Below, one piece after another: positions 26,123 through 59,872 of a stretch of DNA of 64,000 nucleotides (the first letter of the stretch is position 1; each line of letters opens with the position of its first letter). This DNA comes from an uncultured Thermococci archaeon (GTDB taxonomy: Archaea > CAYQAE01 > CAYVLA01), in NCBI GenBank assembly GCA_964549615.1, contig CAZJVP010000088.1, positions 1 to 64,000 on the forward strand. Direction: 5' to 3'. The notes under the pieces are model-generated. The model had not been told where the DNA came from. It made no database searches and saw only the letters and a list, made by a program, of their open reading frames with translations. The position numbers and the translations under genes are program-made.

Positions 26123-26524
26123 CTACCACTTCTCTACCCTAAGCCCGGGTATTCTCTCGAAGTGCCGTGGGTTTCCCGTCAGAAGGGGAAGGTTATTCCG
26201 GATGGCGGTGGCTGCCAGATAGACGTCCTGTATGCCGATCTCTTCACCCGACCTTCTCAGCCTTGCAGCCATCTGGGCTGCCAACTTCGCGGCCTCCTGA
26301 TCAAGGGGCAAGACGACGAATGCACTTAGGAAGTCCTCCACATCGCACACCACCTCAGCCAGGCCCTCATCTTCGTACTTGAGGTGGATCCCGAAGAGGA
26401 ATTCAAAAAGCGTCACAGCGCTGAGCGCGTGGGGTCCCGACCTATCCAAAACGGAGGCCTTCTTAGCAACTTCGGGACCTCCTTTGTCGAGATCTATCAG
26501 AACGGAGGTGTCAAGCAGCTTCAT
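26123..26524 (-). CDS. vapC: PIN-domain (VapC) toxin
   Basis: LLDTSVLID, TLFE, DVYLAATA and LLTGNPRHFERI motifs. Confidence 0.93.
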   Translation of the reverse strand: MKLLDTSVLIDLDKGGPEVAKKASVLDRSGPHALSAVTLFEFLFGIHLKYEDEGLAEVVCDVEDFLSAFVVLPLDQEAAKLAAQMAARLRRSGEEIGIQDVYLAATAIRNNLPLLTGNPRHFERIPGLRVEKW

Positions 26525-26741
26525 CTTGCATCTTCTCGGCCGATCGTCTCTGCATCTCTGCCAAGTGTTGCCTGATTGTTCTCCAGTCCTCCCGTGTGAG
26601 GAGTCCTTTACCCATGACGTCCGATATGGCAGGCCTTGCCTGCATGAGTCTTCTTATTAGATCGGTGAAGGACTCGTTCTGCCTCTTTCTTCTCTTGAGG
26701 GCCACGTACACGTCGTCTGCAATGGACACGTTCCTTGCCAC
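26511..26741 (-). CDS. vapB: VapB-type (DUF217-like, RHH) antitoxin
   Basis: NVSIADDVYVALKRRKRQNESFTDLIRRL signature; overlaps vapC. Confidence 0.9.
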   Translation of the reverse strand: MARNVSIADDVYVALKRRKRQNESFTDLIRRLMQARPAISDVMGKGLLTREDWRTIRQHLAEMQRRSAEKMQDEAA

Positions 26742-26754
26742 ATATACATATGTG
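26739..26754. promoter_or_regulatory. Palindromic operator candidate over the vapB start
   Basis: Perfect inverted repeat CACATAT-AC-ATATGTG between the TATA-like TTTTATT and the GTG start. Confidence 0.55.
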
Positions 26755-26921
26755 CACCCATAGAATAAAATGCTTTCCTAGCATCACCGCCGTAGATCGG
26801 CTACGCTCGTGCGGCCCGAGGAGCCCAAGCCCAAGCCCCATATCATCAAACCAAGGCCCCTCGTGCCATGTTGAGATCCGTTCCACCTAGCAGTCCCCTT
26901 CGTGGCTCGCGGGCATGGAAG

Positions 26922-27062
26922 CGCTGGGGAGGGGATTTGAACCCCTGATGCCTTGCGGCAACTGACTAGCCGCTCCAATCCGGATTAGCAGGCCTGCGCT
27001 CCAGATCCATCAGCGCCCTAACCAGATTGCCCGTGGATTGCTCCACCCTAGGCGACCCCAGC
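26922..27062 (-). tRNA. tRNA-Ser(GCT) with three BHB introns (15/16, 29/30, 37/38); CCA not encoded
   Basis: Removing 27027-27047, 26994-27010 and 26968-26985 gives an 85-nt cloverleaf: acceptor GCTGGGG/CCCCAGC, anticodon arm CTGGC-CTGCTAA-GTCAG, variable arm TGCC-GCAA-GGCA, T arm AGGGG-TTCAAAT-CCCCT, discriminator G. Confidence 0.92.
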
Positions 27063-27086
27063 TTGTCTCGCACCTCGCCCGGGGTC

Positions 27087-27101
27087 GAAATAAATCTTTC
27101 C
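27087..27101 (-). promoter_or_regulatory. BRE/TATA promoter of the tRNA-Ser gene
   Basis: GGAAAGATTTATTTC about 25 nt upstream of tRNA G1; nearly identical GGAAAGATTTAAAA lies upstream of endA (59946-59959). Confidence 0.65.
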
Positions 27102-27133
27102 GAGTTGAAGCGTGGGTCGGTCGGATCGGTTCA

Positions 27134-27566
27134 TCACATCTCCGAGGGAAACAACAGCGTGTCCTCGAACCCTTTGGATCGAATGAAAGATCGCAGCTTG
27201 GCGTCGACGCTCAGCAGCTTCAACCCCCAAGCTCCTCGAGCTGGCGTAGAGCAAGTTGTCGATCATATCCTTGTGGCCGGCCGAGTATACCTGAAGAGCA
27301 TGCAGGTAGGCCTCAGACTGCTCCTCGGCAATGAGGTACACGCCCCCCTTCAGGATACTGTTCAGCCCCTGCCCAAACAATCCCAGGTCAAGCCGACCAT
27401 CGGCCGCGAATCTTGCCCCGGTCCAAAGTGCTTCCAGAATCGAGAAGCGAGAGCACCAGATCTCCGCTGGGTTGGCTTTCAGCTTCTCCAGTCCTCGTCT
27501 GACTTCATCGCCGGCGTCTATCCCCATCGAGGGCAAGATGAACGGGGTATCAAGGAGGACTCTCAG
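27134..27566 (-). pseudogene. Frameshifted PIN-domain toxin
   Basis: LRVLLDTPFILP...KDMIDNLLYA; the expected PIN C-terminus LKLLSVDAKLRSFI...FPSEM* is in another frame, switching at a G5 run (about 27224-27228); the apparent start codon is CTG. Confidence 0.78.
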
Positions 27567-57443: not shown

Positions 57444-58694
57444 ATGGATTCCAACAAGGTCGTTGTGATCGGGCTGGGAAGGATAGGGCTTCCGAGTGCT
57501 GTCTGCTTTGCCCAAGCTGGTTTGGACGTCGTCGGTGTCGATGTGGACGAGGCCAGACTGAGAAGCATACAGGCTGGAGAGGTCCATCCCCTAGAGCCCG
57601 GTCTCAAGGACGCTGTCGCAAGTTCCATCAGTTCGGGTAGGCTTCGGCTCTCCACCGCCCCCGAGCCAGCTGACGCGTTCGTCCTCTGCCTGCCCACTCC
57701 TCTGGACGAGGACCAGCACTGTGACCTCACCTACCTGGGCAAGGGGCTCGATGAAATTGCCAAGGTGATCCGACCGGGAAATCTCATCGTCATCGAAAGC
57801 ACGGTTCCGGTCCATACGACGCGCGACTTCGCGCTACCCCGGCTGAGGTCGGCGGGCGTCGACATCGACTCCGTGCTAGTTGCCTACGCCCCAGAGCGGA
57901 TCACGTCCGGAAACATGCTTGAGGAAATGCGCAAGGGCGACAGAATCATCGGCGGCATCACCAAGGCGGCCGCAGAGGCGGCGAGGGACCTGTACAGGGC
58001 CTTCGTATTAGGCGAAATCCTGCTGACCGACGCCTCCACCGCCGAGCTTGTGAAGTTGATCGAGAATACCTACAGGGACGTGAACATAGCCCTGGCCAAC
58101 GAGATCGCCCTGTTCTGCGACAAAGAAGGACTGAACGTCTGGGAGGCGATCGCCCTCGCAAACCGGCACCCGAGGGTGAACATACATACCCCAGGCCCTG
58201 GGGTTGGAGGCCACTGCATCCCCGTTGTGCCCCACTTCCTTGCCCAGGCAACAAAGCATAGCACGCTCATCCTTGCAGCCCGCCAGGTCAACGACTCGAT
58301 GCCTAGGTACATCGCGAACCTCATCCTGAGGGAGGTCGCCGATCTGGAGAAGCCCAAGGTCGCGCTCATGGGCGTCGCATACAAAGCGAATGCGTACGAT
58401 CCCGTTAACAGCCCAGCCCTTCAGGTACGCGCATTCTTGGAGAAGGAAAAGCTGGAGCTTGTCCTCTGCGATCCACTGGTCCGCCAGACCGACCTTCATC
58501 TGGTCGACATTCCGGAGGCAATCGCCTCGGACTGCGTGGTATTCCTCGTGCCCCATAACGTGTTTAGACAGATCAAGCCGGGCAAGCCAGTCAGGGGCAG
58601 GGGCACCGTCATAGATGCCGGAAACTGCATAGAGGCCGAGCAATGGGCGTCCCGGGGCTGGACGGTCAGGGGCTTTGCCAGGGGCAGGCACTAG
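57444..58694 (+). CDS. Nucleotide-sugar dehydrogenase (UDP-ManNAc/GlcNAc dehydrogenase, WecC-like)
   Basis: GLGRIGLP, LPTP, IESTV, PER, KLIENTYRDVNIA, PGPGVGGHCIP and AYKAN motifs. Confidence 0.9.
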   Translation: MDSNKVVVIGLGRIGLPSAVCFAQAGLDVVGVDVDEARLRSIQAGEVHPLEPGLKDAVASSISSGRLRLSTAPEPADAFVLCLPTPLDEDQHCDLTYLGKGLDEIAKVIRPGNLIVIESTVPVHTTRDFALPRLRSAGVDIDSVLVAYAPERITSGNMLEEMRKGDRIIGGITKAAAEAARDLYRAFVLGEILLTDASTAELVKLIENTYRDVNIALANEIALFCDKEGLNVWEAIALANRHPRVNIHTPGPGVGGHCIPVVPHFLAQATKHSTLILAARQVNDSMPRYIANLILREVADLEKPKVALMGVAYKANAYDPVNSPALQVRAFLEKEKLELVLCDPLVRQTDLHLVDIPEAIASDCVVFLVPHNVFRQIKPGKPVRGRGTVIDAGNCIEAEQWASRGWTVRGFARGRH

Positions 58695-59872
58695 GGTTTC
58701 GCTCTGGCAAAGCTGATCATCCTAACCCTCCCCCGCTGGGCATCGACCTGAGCTATCACGAACTTCTTCTTCACGCTCGCCGCCAACCGGCCCGCCCTCA
58801 CGATCTCGGTAGGGGTGATGCTGGAGGTGCTGGGGTAGACATGTATGAGGAAGGGGGCGTGGTCAAGCCCGGGCCCGTACTCATAGACCGCGAAGTCAAC
58901 TCCGAATTTCATCCCGGACTTCACGACCAATCCGGAGTCCTTGAGCTTCTGGTACACTATGTACCTCTCACGGAAGTGAGGTTCGCTCAGCGCAGCCTTG
59001 GCCAGCTGGTCGACGCTCACTCCCGCTTCCCCGTCCTCAAGCCTTACCCGCCCTAGGCCTGCCAGGTAGAGAAGCTCGGTGAATGAGAGCATGATCGGCT
59101 TCTCAAAGTCCATGGAACGGGGCTTCCTTATCCCTATCGGCTTGCCGAAATAGCCCTCCCTGTAAAGGCTCAAGGCGCCAAGGGGGTCCCAAACCACGGC
59201 CATGGGGCCGACGATCTGCGCCGCGTCCTTGCGATCGGGCGAGTAGCGCACAGCAGGCCTCGTTGTGAATCTCTTCATCTCGTAGTAGGAGACCTCTCCC
59301 TCCTCGTCGACGAGTGCAAGATAGACCGCCTTCTTGAAGCGCCCTGCAATCGTGAGGACCCGTTCGAGCTCATCCAGCGCGATGCTCTGGTTTCTAGAGT
59401 ACACCGCGACGAGGTGGGTGCAGGGCTTTCCGGGCTTCTCGAAAAACCAAAGGTAAGGCATCTCAGCCGTCCCCGCTTTCAGCCTGCGCCCCTTGCTCCT
59501 CATGTCTCGGTAGACCAGGTACTTGAGGAAGAACGATGCATCCGAGGCCAATCCCCTCTTCAGAATCGCTTGGAAAGGAATCTCCCTTCCGTCATCAACT
59601 ATCCGCAGCACGCCGCGGCGTTGGAGGTAGAAAGCGGCGACGTCCGGCAGAAGCAACCCACCGTCCTCGGGAAATCCGTGATCCAACTCCACCAACGATC
59701 CCGGGCTCTCGACGAGGACCCCTTCCTCGACCAACTTCCCGGTGTAGGTTTCGACGATCTCCTCGGCCGCCTCTTCGCCCTCTTGGGACTCATCCAAGTC
59801 CGTCGGCTTTTCGAGCTCCTCCTCCAACTCTTCGTCAGAATCCTCAGGCAGGATCGACACCTGCATCACCAC
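58691..59872 (-). CDS. endA: tRNA-intron endonuclease, fused structural plus catalytic repeats
   Basis: Repeat 1 YLVYRDMRSKG...LVDEEGEVSYY (non-catalytic); repeat 2 SGMKFGVDFAVY, DHAPF, RLAASVKK (Tyr/His/Lys). Confidence 0.93.
   Translation of the reverse strand: MVMQVSILPEDSDEELEEELEKPTDLDESQEGEEAAEEIVETYTGKLVEEGVLVESPGSLVELDHGFPEDGGLLLPDVAAFYLQRRGVLRIVDDGREIPFQAILKRGLASDASFFLKYLVYRDMRSKGRRLKAGTAEMPYLWFFEKPGKPCTHLVAVYSRNQSIALDELERVLTIAGRFKKAVYLALVDEEGEVSYYEMKRFTTRPAVRYSPDRKDAAQIVGPMAVVWDPLGALSLYREGYFGKPIGIRKPRSMDFEKPIMLSFTELLYLAGLGRVRLEDGEAGVSVDQLAKAALSEPHFRERYIVYQKLKDSGLVVKSGMKFGVDFAVYEYGPGLDHAPFLIHVYPSTSSITPTEIVRAGRLAASVKKKFVIAQVDAQRGRVRMISFARAKP

Follow-up and report, generated by a model that had tools for sequence, protein, structure and literature searches.

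A tRNA-Ser(GCU) gene with three short introns and overlapping splice motifs in an uncultured hot-spring archaeon

The gene and its three splice motifs

The stretch of DNA analyzed here (hereafter the window) comprises positions 1 to 64,000 of contig CAZJVP010000088.1 from the genome of an uncultured hot-spring archaeon, and on its minus strand, at 27062..26922, lies a tRNA-Ser(GCU) gene that measures 141 nt unspliced and is interrupted by three short introns. Taking out 21, 17 and 18 nt at tRNA positions 15/16, 29/30 and 37/38 (56 nt in all) leaves an 85-nt tRNA-Ser(GCU) with a perfect cloverleaf, and ARAGORN, given the sequence spliced in silico, calls an 85-nt tRNA-Ser(gct) in which every stem is paired. 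A first-pass annotation, made from the letters of the window, had proposed the serine identity and the anticodon, the positions and lengths of the three introns, a mature length of 85 nt and an exon 3 of only 8 nt; identity, anticodon and introns are borne out by ARAGORN on the spliced form together with a scan for bulge–helix–bulge (BHB) motifs and cloverleaf fit, the mature length is matched by the in-silico splicing, and the 8-nt exon emerges again from a base-by-base parse. The parts of the gene are listed below with their positions in the window; G000 denotes this genome, G001–G003 the other three genomes of its family, and G004 a genome of the sister family.

26922..27062, minus strand: tRNA-Ser(GCU) gene; no CCA is encoded; full-length orthologues with 89–92% identity in G001, G002 and G003
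27062–27048, minus strand: exon 1 (tRNA positions 1–15), with the acceptor 5′ strand, U8, C9, the D-stem 5′ strand, A14 and G15
27047–27027, minus strand: intron 1, 21 nt, at 15/16; HBh′ motif
27026–27011, minus strand: exon 2 (positions 16–29), 16 nt, with the remaining D-loop, the D-stem 3′ strand, G26 and C27–G29
27010–26994, minus strand: intron 2, 17 nt, at 29/30; hBH motif in this genome
26993–26986, minus strand: exon 3 (G30–A37), 8 nt, carrying the anticodon GCU
26985–26968, minus strand: intron 3, 18 nt, at the canonical position 37/38; its outer helix is the anticodon stem
26967–26922, minus strand: exon 4 (positions 38–73), with the anticodon stem 3′ strand, the long variable arm, the T-arm, the acceptor 3′ strand and G73

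The gene begins with the 7-nt acceptor strand and closes with the T-arm, the complementary acceptor strand and G73. Once spliced, it has the form of a class II cloverleaf, with a 7-bp acceptor stem, a 4-bp D-stem, a 5-bp anticodon stem, a 5-bp T-stem and a variable region of 15 nt that contains a 4-bp stem; the conserved U8, A14, G18–G19, U33 and T-loop are all present. Both G73 and the acceptor sequence GCYGGGG are common to the Ser(GCU), Ser(CGA), Ser(TGA) and Ser(GGA) tRNAs of the genome, and its Leu tRNAs carry A73.

The unspliced gene escapes standard tRNA finders: it is called neither by ARAGORN (0 genes in the window) nor by Rfam at the gathering score (0 matches), and it is not among the 35 matches of a genome-wide search with the tRNA model RF00005, a failure that is to be expected because the unspliced gene carries 56 nt of insertions. 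Loosening the Rfam threshold (E up to 10) gives only a 15.1-bit tRNA-Sec match at the locus, and the intron mode of ARAGORN mis-calls it as tRNA-Thr(agt) with a 67-nt intron. The parse was therefore evaluated with a heuristic scan of our own, which finds a T-arm with a matching acceptor, lists candidate BHB introns (a 4-bp helix between two 3-nt bulges plus at least one flanking helix), removes up to three of them and scores the resulting cloverleaf. The scan found 43 T-arm/acceptor spans in the genome, a genome-wide result that is a lower bound and includes some implausible parses (spans of 251 nt, for example, or remaining introns taken for long variable arms). The Ser(GCU) span offers 59 candidate introns in 242 allowed combinations, among which the parse given above ranks first, tied with one alternative intron 1; its score of 36 is as high as any in the genome and is shared with the intron-less tRNA-Ser(CGA). 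As a control for chance, each intron was shuffled 20,000 times with the exons fixed, and lax BHB criteria were applied at the exact junctions. Motifs of the required kind arose in 70, 544 and 889 of the 20,000 shuffles for introns 1, 2 and 3, respectively, and all three together in none; motifs as good as the native ones arose in 0, 163 and 29.

At the junctions that restore the cloverleaf, the central helix of each of the three introns is fully paired (4/4), and the helices and hairpin proposed in the first-pass annotation were all found base by base on the minus strand. For intron 1, the D-stem sequence GCCT (G10–U13, 27053–27050) pairs with the intronic GGGC (27032–27029), which duplicates the D-stem 3′ strand, and the inner hairpin GTGGA-GCAA-TCCAC contributes 5 bp (27046–27042 with 27037–27033); the outer helix has 0 bp, hence the HBh′ assignment. 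The central helix of intron 2 joins G24–C27 (27016–27013) to the intronic GCGC (26999–26996), and its 4-bp outer helix joins TAGG (U20a–G23, 27020–27017) to CCTG (C31–G34, 26992–26989). The inner helix of intron 2 is 1 bp in this genome, making it an hBH motif, and in the other versions of the gene, described below, the inner helix has 2–3 bp and the outer helix 3–7 bp. The earlier view of introns 1 and 2 as relaxed forms that disrupt the D-stem stands insofar as both D-stem strands are tied up; intron 2, however, is a relaxed motif in this genome only, the inner helix being longer in the five other versions.

For intron 3, CTGC (C32–C35, 26991–26988) pairs with the intronic GCGG (26973–26970), the inner helix TCC/GGA (26984–26982 with 26976–26974) measures 3–4 bp, and the outer helix has 3 bp in the precursor and 6 bp once intron 2 has been removed. 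Intron 3 had been described as a full BHB; its central and inner helices are present as stated, but the motif is complete only after the loss of intron 2, because intron 2 splits the anticodon stem that forms its outer helix. The bases C32, U33 and G34 (26991–26989) sit in the outer helix of intron 2 and in the central helix of intron 3 alike, confirming the overlap noticed at first pass, and the competition of the two motifs for these bases is real. Since the three bases are common to both motifs and the anticodon stem is broken by intron 2, motifs 2 and 3 cannot coexist in one fold.

Conservation, signs of function and lineage

A DNA search of 41 genomes gave full-length matches in the other three genomes of the family (G001, 92% identity; G003, 90%; G002, 89%); beyond the family, the same search returned T-arm-sized matches only, and no match in G004. 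An exon-based pattern that allowed 0–30 nt at 37/38 found five metagenome loci and three genome contigs, the latter being the G001–G003 sequences, and all eight have an 18-nt intron 3. Together, 12 records including the window reduce to six distinct versions, from the four genomes and two metagenome variants, every one with three introns. Splicing in silico turns all six, as well as the G004 orthologue described below, into sequences that ARAGORN calls as tRNA-Ser(gct) (7/7).

The introns vary much more than the exons that flank them. Among the four genomes, 4 of 85 exon columns are variable against 23 of 58 intron columns (Fisher p = 2.9e-7, the columns not being independent of each other), and among the six versions the counts are 5/85 and 23/58. 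By part, the exon changes in the six versions fall at 0/15 columns of exon 1, 2/16 of exon 2 (both in the D-loop), 0/8 of exon 3 and 3/46 of exon 4, and intron 2 is the fastest-changing part of the gene (11 of 18 columns variable). Variation within the introns falls in loops and bulge bases: the hairpin stem of intron 1 is invariant and closes a loop that occurs in four different sequences, and the first base of the intron is G, A or T among the six versions. Helix cells are paired at 97.7% and 98.7%, compared with 34–52% when the partners are slid. A contig from another sequencing run spans the whole gene with the same layout, its changes concentrated in intron 2, and no intron-less DNA form was found among the contigs of four runs, one of which contains the T-arm end only and one of which has no coverage of the locus. 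No RNA run turned up that covers the interval 26500–27500 of the window.

Introns 2 (27010–26994) and 3 (26985–26968) of this genome resemble each other, such that only 10 of 5000 shuffles align as well, and they can pair with each other over 8 bp. The other versions of intron 2 lack any resemblance to intron 3, which hints at a local conversion event that may also have destroyed the intron 2 inner helix in this genome. Copies of the three introns were not found in other tRNA genes by a short-word BLAST of the genome, in which the best match is 17 nt long and lies on contig C85, outside any tRNA.

Upstream of the gene lies one further feature:

27088..27100, minus strand: promoter-like box, a purine-rich stretch and then the TATA-like TTTATTT, 26–38 nt upstream of tRNA position 1

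The core of this box, AAAGATTTA, is invariant in 4/4 family genomes at 29–37 nt upstream, with diverged flanks, and we read the box as a putative archaeal promoter of the B recognition element (BRE)/TATA type. A second Ser(GCU) gene was not found among the 35 RF00005 matches, the 43 T-arm/acceptor spans or the ARAGORN list, so the locus is apparently the only tRNA-Ser(GCU) gene of the genome; in three window genes, 31 of 80 Ser codons are AGC or AGT. As standard tRNA finders are blind to this gene, automatic annotation would lose the sole decoder of AGY serine codons, here and in relatives. ARAGORN does list a 'Ser gct' on contig C55, which was rejected as a second Ser(GCU) gene and re-parses as a tRNA-Leu(UAG) with two introns. 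That tRNA-Leu(UAG) gene (C55:28852-28969, plus strand) is crowded like the Ser gene, its two introns, each of 17 nt, lying at 30/31 and 37/38 with a 7-nt exon between them.

The ABC-E1 protein encoded in the window shares 73–80% identity with proteins of three metagenome-assembled genomes (MAGs) titled Candidatus Hadarchaeota, and at most about 50% with anything else listed; the taxonomy used places the genome in a class and phylum with five genomes only. Judged by these relationships, the host is not a member of the Thermoproteales and belongs to a five-species lineage with relatives titled Hadarchaeota. The whole five-genome group is intron-rich, because its RF00005 matches are few (28–37 per genome) and many of them are 85–144 nt long. 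In this genome, our heuristic inventory, a lower bound with some bad parses, lists tRNA introns at several non-canonical places, and the tRNA sets of the lineage are probably under-annotated owing to non-canonical and multiple introns.

The tRNA-Ser(GCU) gene of G004 (L189:1501-1600, minus strand, contig G004:C2) is 100 nt long and contains a single intron of 16 nt, which sits at 29/30 and has an outer helix of 7 bp; the gene has no introns at 15/16 and 37/38. On the simplest reading, the 29/30 intron would be old and introns 1 and 3 would have been gained within the family, with loss in G004, the one outgroup, as the alternative. The canonical 37/38 intron thus looks younger here than the non-canonical 29/30 intron.

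Splicing enzymes and the proposed order of intron removal

The window also encodes a splicing endonuclease:

58691..59872, minus strand: splicing endonuclease EndA, 393 aa; two fused units, the first beta-like and the second a catalytic alpha unit

Its identity, already suggested at first pass, is upheld by Pfam (PF02778 and PF01974, in two stretches), by NCBIfam beta-subunit models that match residues 110–200, and by the C-terminal unit, whose closest match of known structure is chain 3p1z_B (E = 2.4e-43, residues 216–376), which we take to be the Aeropyrum pernix catalytic subunit. The alpha unit aligns through the loop region and places K250 opposite residue 44 of 3p1z_B. In the available text of PMC5829648, K44 is given as the lysine of a Crenarchaea-specific loop that confers broad specificity. 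The N-terminus of the protein, as set by the predicted start (first ~65 residues; 59678–59872, minus strand), includes an acidic, Glu/Asp-rich segment of ~45–65 residues that is covered by none of the models or chains.

A second endonuclease of 403 aa is encoded on contig C90 (C90:41466-42674; locus L062:1195-2406, minus strand). Residues 29–403 align with residues 22–387 of 4fz2_A, the ARMAN-2 epsilon2 enzyme (E = 2e-73), and by this alignment the C90 protein is an epsilon-type EndA, homologous to the ARMAN-2 enzyme over nearly its whole length. Both EndA genes, each complete and the two unlike in architecture, are kept in all four genomes of the family, and G004 gives a single 190-aa subunit match. 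A gene for the RtcB ligase is present in the genome.

To compare the three motifs, local motif energies were computed at 37 °C for the six versions of the gene, as listed below (kcal/mol; the last value is for the intron 3 motif once intron 2 has been removed).

This genome (G000): intron 1, −12.2; intron 2, −4.9; intron 3, −6.7; intron 3 without intron 2, −12.0
G001: intron 1, −12.2; intron 2, −14.6; intron 3, −6.6; intron 3 without intron 2, −12.0
G003: intron 1, −7.6; intron 2, −5.2; intron 3, −3.9; intron 3 without intron 2, −12.2
G002: intron 1, −12.2; intron 2, −7.0; intron 3, −4.7; intron 3 without intron 2, −13.0
L156 type: intron 1, −12.2; intron 2, −7.2; intron 3, −6.7; intron 3 without intron 2, −12.0
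L160: intron 1, −11.1; intron 2, −9.6; intron 3, −6.7; intron 3 without intron 2, −12.0

In all six versions the intron 3 motif improves from between −3.9 and −6.7 to between −12.0 and −13.0 kcal/mol upon removal of intron 2, and the energy of the intron 2 motif is unchanged by removal of intron 3; intron 2 is the stronger of the two in five versions. In G001 the outer helix of intron 2 has 7 bp, like that of G004, and covers C31–A37, that is, all of exon 3 except G30. In this model, intron 1 is independent of the others and intron 3 depends on intron 2. A route in which intron 2 leaves before intron 3 is favored because the two motifs are mutually exclusive and intron 2 breaks the anticodon stem; the modeled energies make this sequence of the two likely, and ordered splicing of the precursor, as the first-pass annotation had supposed, plausible.

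On balance, and with modest confidence, we favor the explanation that the locus is a working and apparently the only tRNA-Ser(GCU) gene, with a conserved TATA-type promoter and three BHB introns, and that removal of intron 2 followed by intron 3 is the preferred route. From the anatomy, the conservation and the enzyme complement observed above, we infer how the gene might be expressed, where it would be cut, by which enzyme and in what order. Transcription from the TATA-type promoter would yield a precursor of 141 nt or more, in which the acceptor, T and variable arms could form but the D-arm and the anticodon arm could not. The GGGC of intron 1 would capture the D-stem 5′ strand, producing an HBh′ motif stacked on the 5-bp hairpin, and the GCGC of intron 2 would capture G24–C27 while U20a–G23 pair with C31–G34 as the outer helix. 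The fused beta–alpha enzyme, the epsilon-type enzyme of C90, or both would then cut within the 3-nt bulges, leaving the exons to be ligated by RtcB. Intron 1 would be removable at any time; intron 2 would leave first, and the canonical intron 3 afterwards.

Several results weigh against this explanation. Of the three motifs of this genome, that of intron 2 has the least favorable energy (−4.9 kcal/mol, compared with −6.7 for intron 3), and its inner helix is down to 1 bp. Two conformers built by hand are close in energy, at −50.3 kcal/mol with the intron 2 motif and −53.5 with that of intron 3 at 37 °C, and at −8.2 and −7.6, respectively, at 80 °C, the gaps being 3.2 and 0.6 kcal/mol. The structure of lowest energy predicted for the precursor (−66.9 kcal/mol) does not have the BHB fold and contains 8 bp between introns 2 and 3; imposing the motif cores costs 1.2 kcal/mol for intron 1, 8.3 for intron 2 and 10.4 for intron 3. 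Whole-molecule folding was nevertheless given little weight as a judge of order, because the same model fails to produce the cloverleaf of the mature tRNA. As for the helices, covariation is not significant: the four sequences contain one two-sided pair, a number reached in 238 of 500 shuffles, and no two-sided changes were seen in the helices counted on six sequences. What speaks for the helices is thus their conservation rather than compensatory change. Because the outer helix of intron 2 consists of exon bases, which are under constraint in any case, its conservation carries no weight as proof.

The same functional three-intron gene may instead be spliced in no fixed order, the folds interconverting, the enzyme taking whichever motif it encounters, and intron 3 perhaps even leaving first in this genome, with its decayed intron 2 motif, as an HBh′-type substrate, which we consider possible but would not assume. 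The stronger intron 3 motif of this genome and the advantage of its conformer by 3.2 kcal/mol at 37 °C both point this way, and the last base of intron 2, a G, can replace G29 to give intron 3 an outer helix of 3 bp. Both types of endonuclease are described as cutting relaxed motifs (PMC3239211 and PMC5829648, in their available text), and in the folding model the removal of either intron cheapens the motif of the other (from 8.3 to 3.3 kcal/mol for intron 2, and from 10.4 to 6.4 for intron 3). What tells against a free order is the asymmetry of the local energies, for in 6/6 versions the intron 3 motif gains 5–8 kcal/mol from the prior loss of intron 2 and the intron 2 motif gains nothing, and only one of the six has an intron 2 motif weaker than its intron 3 motif. 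In the three-intron tRNA of a red alga considered below, the 37/38 motif is always last (PMC3728597).

A more elaborate reading is speculative, and we think it improbable: the two EndA enzymes, the fused one having a Crenarchaea-type loop, might split the work, for example between strict and relaxed motifs, decoy pairings might program a folding pathway that sets the order of cutting, and the 37/38 intron might have been inserted late into the outer helix of an older 29/30 intron. The decoys would then be the copy of the D-stem strand within intron 1 and the base-pairing between exon 3 and the D-loop.

The alternative intron 1 that ties in the scan is likewise 21 nt long, begins five bases further 3′, and uses CCTA/TAGG as its outer helix and GGGT/ATCT as its central helix; it also leaves an 85-nt tRNA, with a different D-loop. 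It has a cloverleaf score of 36, a 4/4 central helix and a 4-bp outer helix, yet two of the central pairs are G–U, the helix is broken in G001 and G002 (which have A or T at the base concerned), the shifted junctions would cut through the invariant 5-bp hairpin, and purines would occupy D-loop positions 16–17. With the original intron 1, in contrast, a single substitution and a single insertion separate the D-loop from its counterpart in the intron-less tRNA-Ser(CGA), and the D-loop matches the pattern of the G004 Ser(GCU) gene, which is uninterrupted at that place. The shifted intron was rejected on account of its broken helix in G001/G002, the cut hairpin and the odd D-loop, and we regard it as very unlikely. 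That the locus is a decaying or silent tRNA pseudogene, or an artefact of assembly, would fit its being passed over by standard tools and the negative RNA search, but is scarcely credible for a gene whose exons are near-invariant in six versions from independent assemblies while its introns vary, whose promoter box is conserved, whose layout recurs in full on a contig of another run, and beside which the searches above found no other tRNA-Ser(GCU), in a genome where AGY codons are common.

Relation to known multiple-intron tRNA genes

Archaeal tRNA genes with up to three introns have been described for Crenarchaeota such as Pyrobaculum (PMC4390854, PMC3239211), the three-intron cases in the available text of the former, which describes Sugahara et al. 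2007/2008, being pre-tRNA-Glu(UUC) of Pyrobaculum calidifontis along with pre-tRNA-Pro(UGG) of Pyrobaculum islandicum. The gene studied here resembles them in having three short BHB introns in one tRNA gene, some of them non-canonical, and in being missed by standard finders. It differs in its host, which belongs to a five-species, phylum-level group with Hadarchaeota-titled relatives and not to the Thermoproteales; in its enzymes, a fused two-unit endonuclease plus an epsilon-type one here as opposed to separate alpha and beta subunits there; and in the absence of any sign of intron transposition of the kind described for Thermoproteales, no intron copies having been found elsewhere in the genome.

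The statement of the first-pass annotation that triple-intron tRNAs are known mainly from Thermoproteales-type archaea is outdated, as up to five intervening sequences per tRNA gene are reported for Asgard archaea in the available text of a preprint (bioRxiv 10.64898/2026.10.13.758758). The Asgard genes are comparable in that many of their introns are non-canonical, clustered in the D-arm and in many cases missed by the annotator; unlike the present host, the Asgard archaea are another phylum and are reported with two-subunit, (alpha–beta)2-like enzymes, and the preprint text available contains neither 'Hadarchae' nor 'splicing order'. Literature searches returned no paper on tRNA introns in Hadarchaeota, and the survey PMC5829648, in its available text, only lists one Hadesarchaea genome. 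The phenomenon is thus known from other archaea, and what is new is the lineage and the unusual pair of endonucleases; dense, overlapping BHB introns are extended to a deep archaeal lineage outside the Thermoproteales and Asgard.

Tocchini-Valentini et al. (2009, PNAS 106:20246) reportedly described dependent, ordered processing of pre-tRNAs with multiple introns. The present gene has features in common with such ordered-processing systems: several BHB motifs per precursor, an order, predicted in our case, that is tied to motif stability with 37/38 last, and one motif that is completed by the removal of another intron. In the three-intron tRNA-Ile(UAU) of the red alga Cyanidioschyzon merolae, the order follows the free energy of the motifs, with 37/38 last, according to the available text of PMC3728597. 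There the enzyme is a different, eukaryotic one; here three exon bases belong to two motifs at once, across an exon of 8 nt, which makes these motifs mutually exclusive rather than simply ranked, and the comparison from our side is one of sequence. The 141-nt precursor would be a suitable in vitro substrate with which to follow the order of cutting and the roles of two co-resident types of endonuclease.

Comparable in the types of motif combined is pre-tRNA-Glu(UUC) of Methanopyrus kandleri, which carries an HBh′ intron in the D-loop together with a canonical intron (PMC5829648, available text), much as a relaxed HBh′ intron in the D-loop region stands alongside a strict 37/38 intron here. That gene has two introns and ours three, and the M. 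kandleri enzyme, as far as the available text goes, has no specificity loop and cuts the relaxed intron poorly, whereas the alpha unit of the window EndA aligns through the loop, including a lysine that matches K44.

For the ARMAN-2 epsilon2 enzyme, strict as well as relaxed motifs are substrates, and disrupted tRNA genes are numerous in its host (PMC3239211, available text). The present system differs in that the host lineage is another one and the epsilon-type enzyme, its activity predicted from homology, coexists with a fused alpha–beta-type enzyme. A protein search with the C90 EndA gave matches to 634 proteins at E ≤ 1e-20, and judged by these homologues the epsilon-type enzyme occurs far beyond the ARMAN lineages that the 2011 and 2018 papers name. 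Full-length epsilon-type relatives, with 38–47% identity, are common in MAGs named Aenigmatarchaeota.

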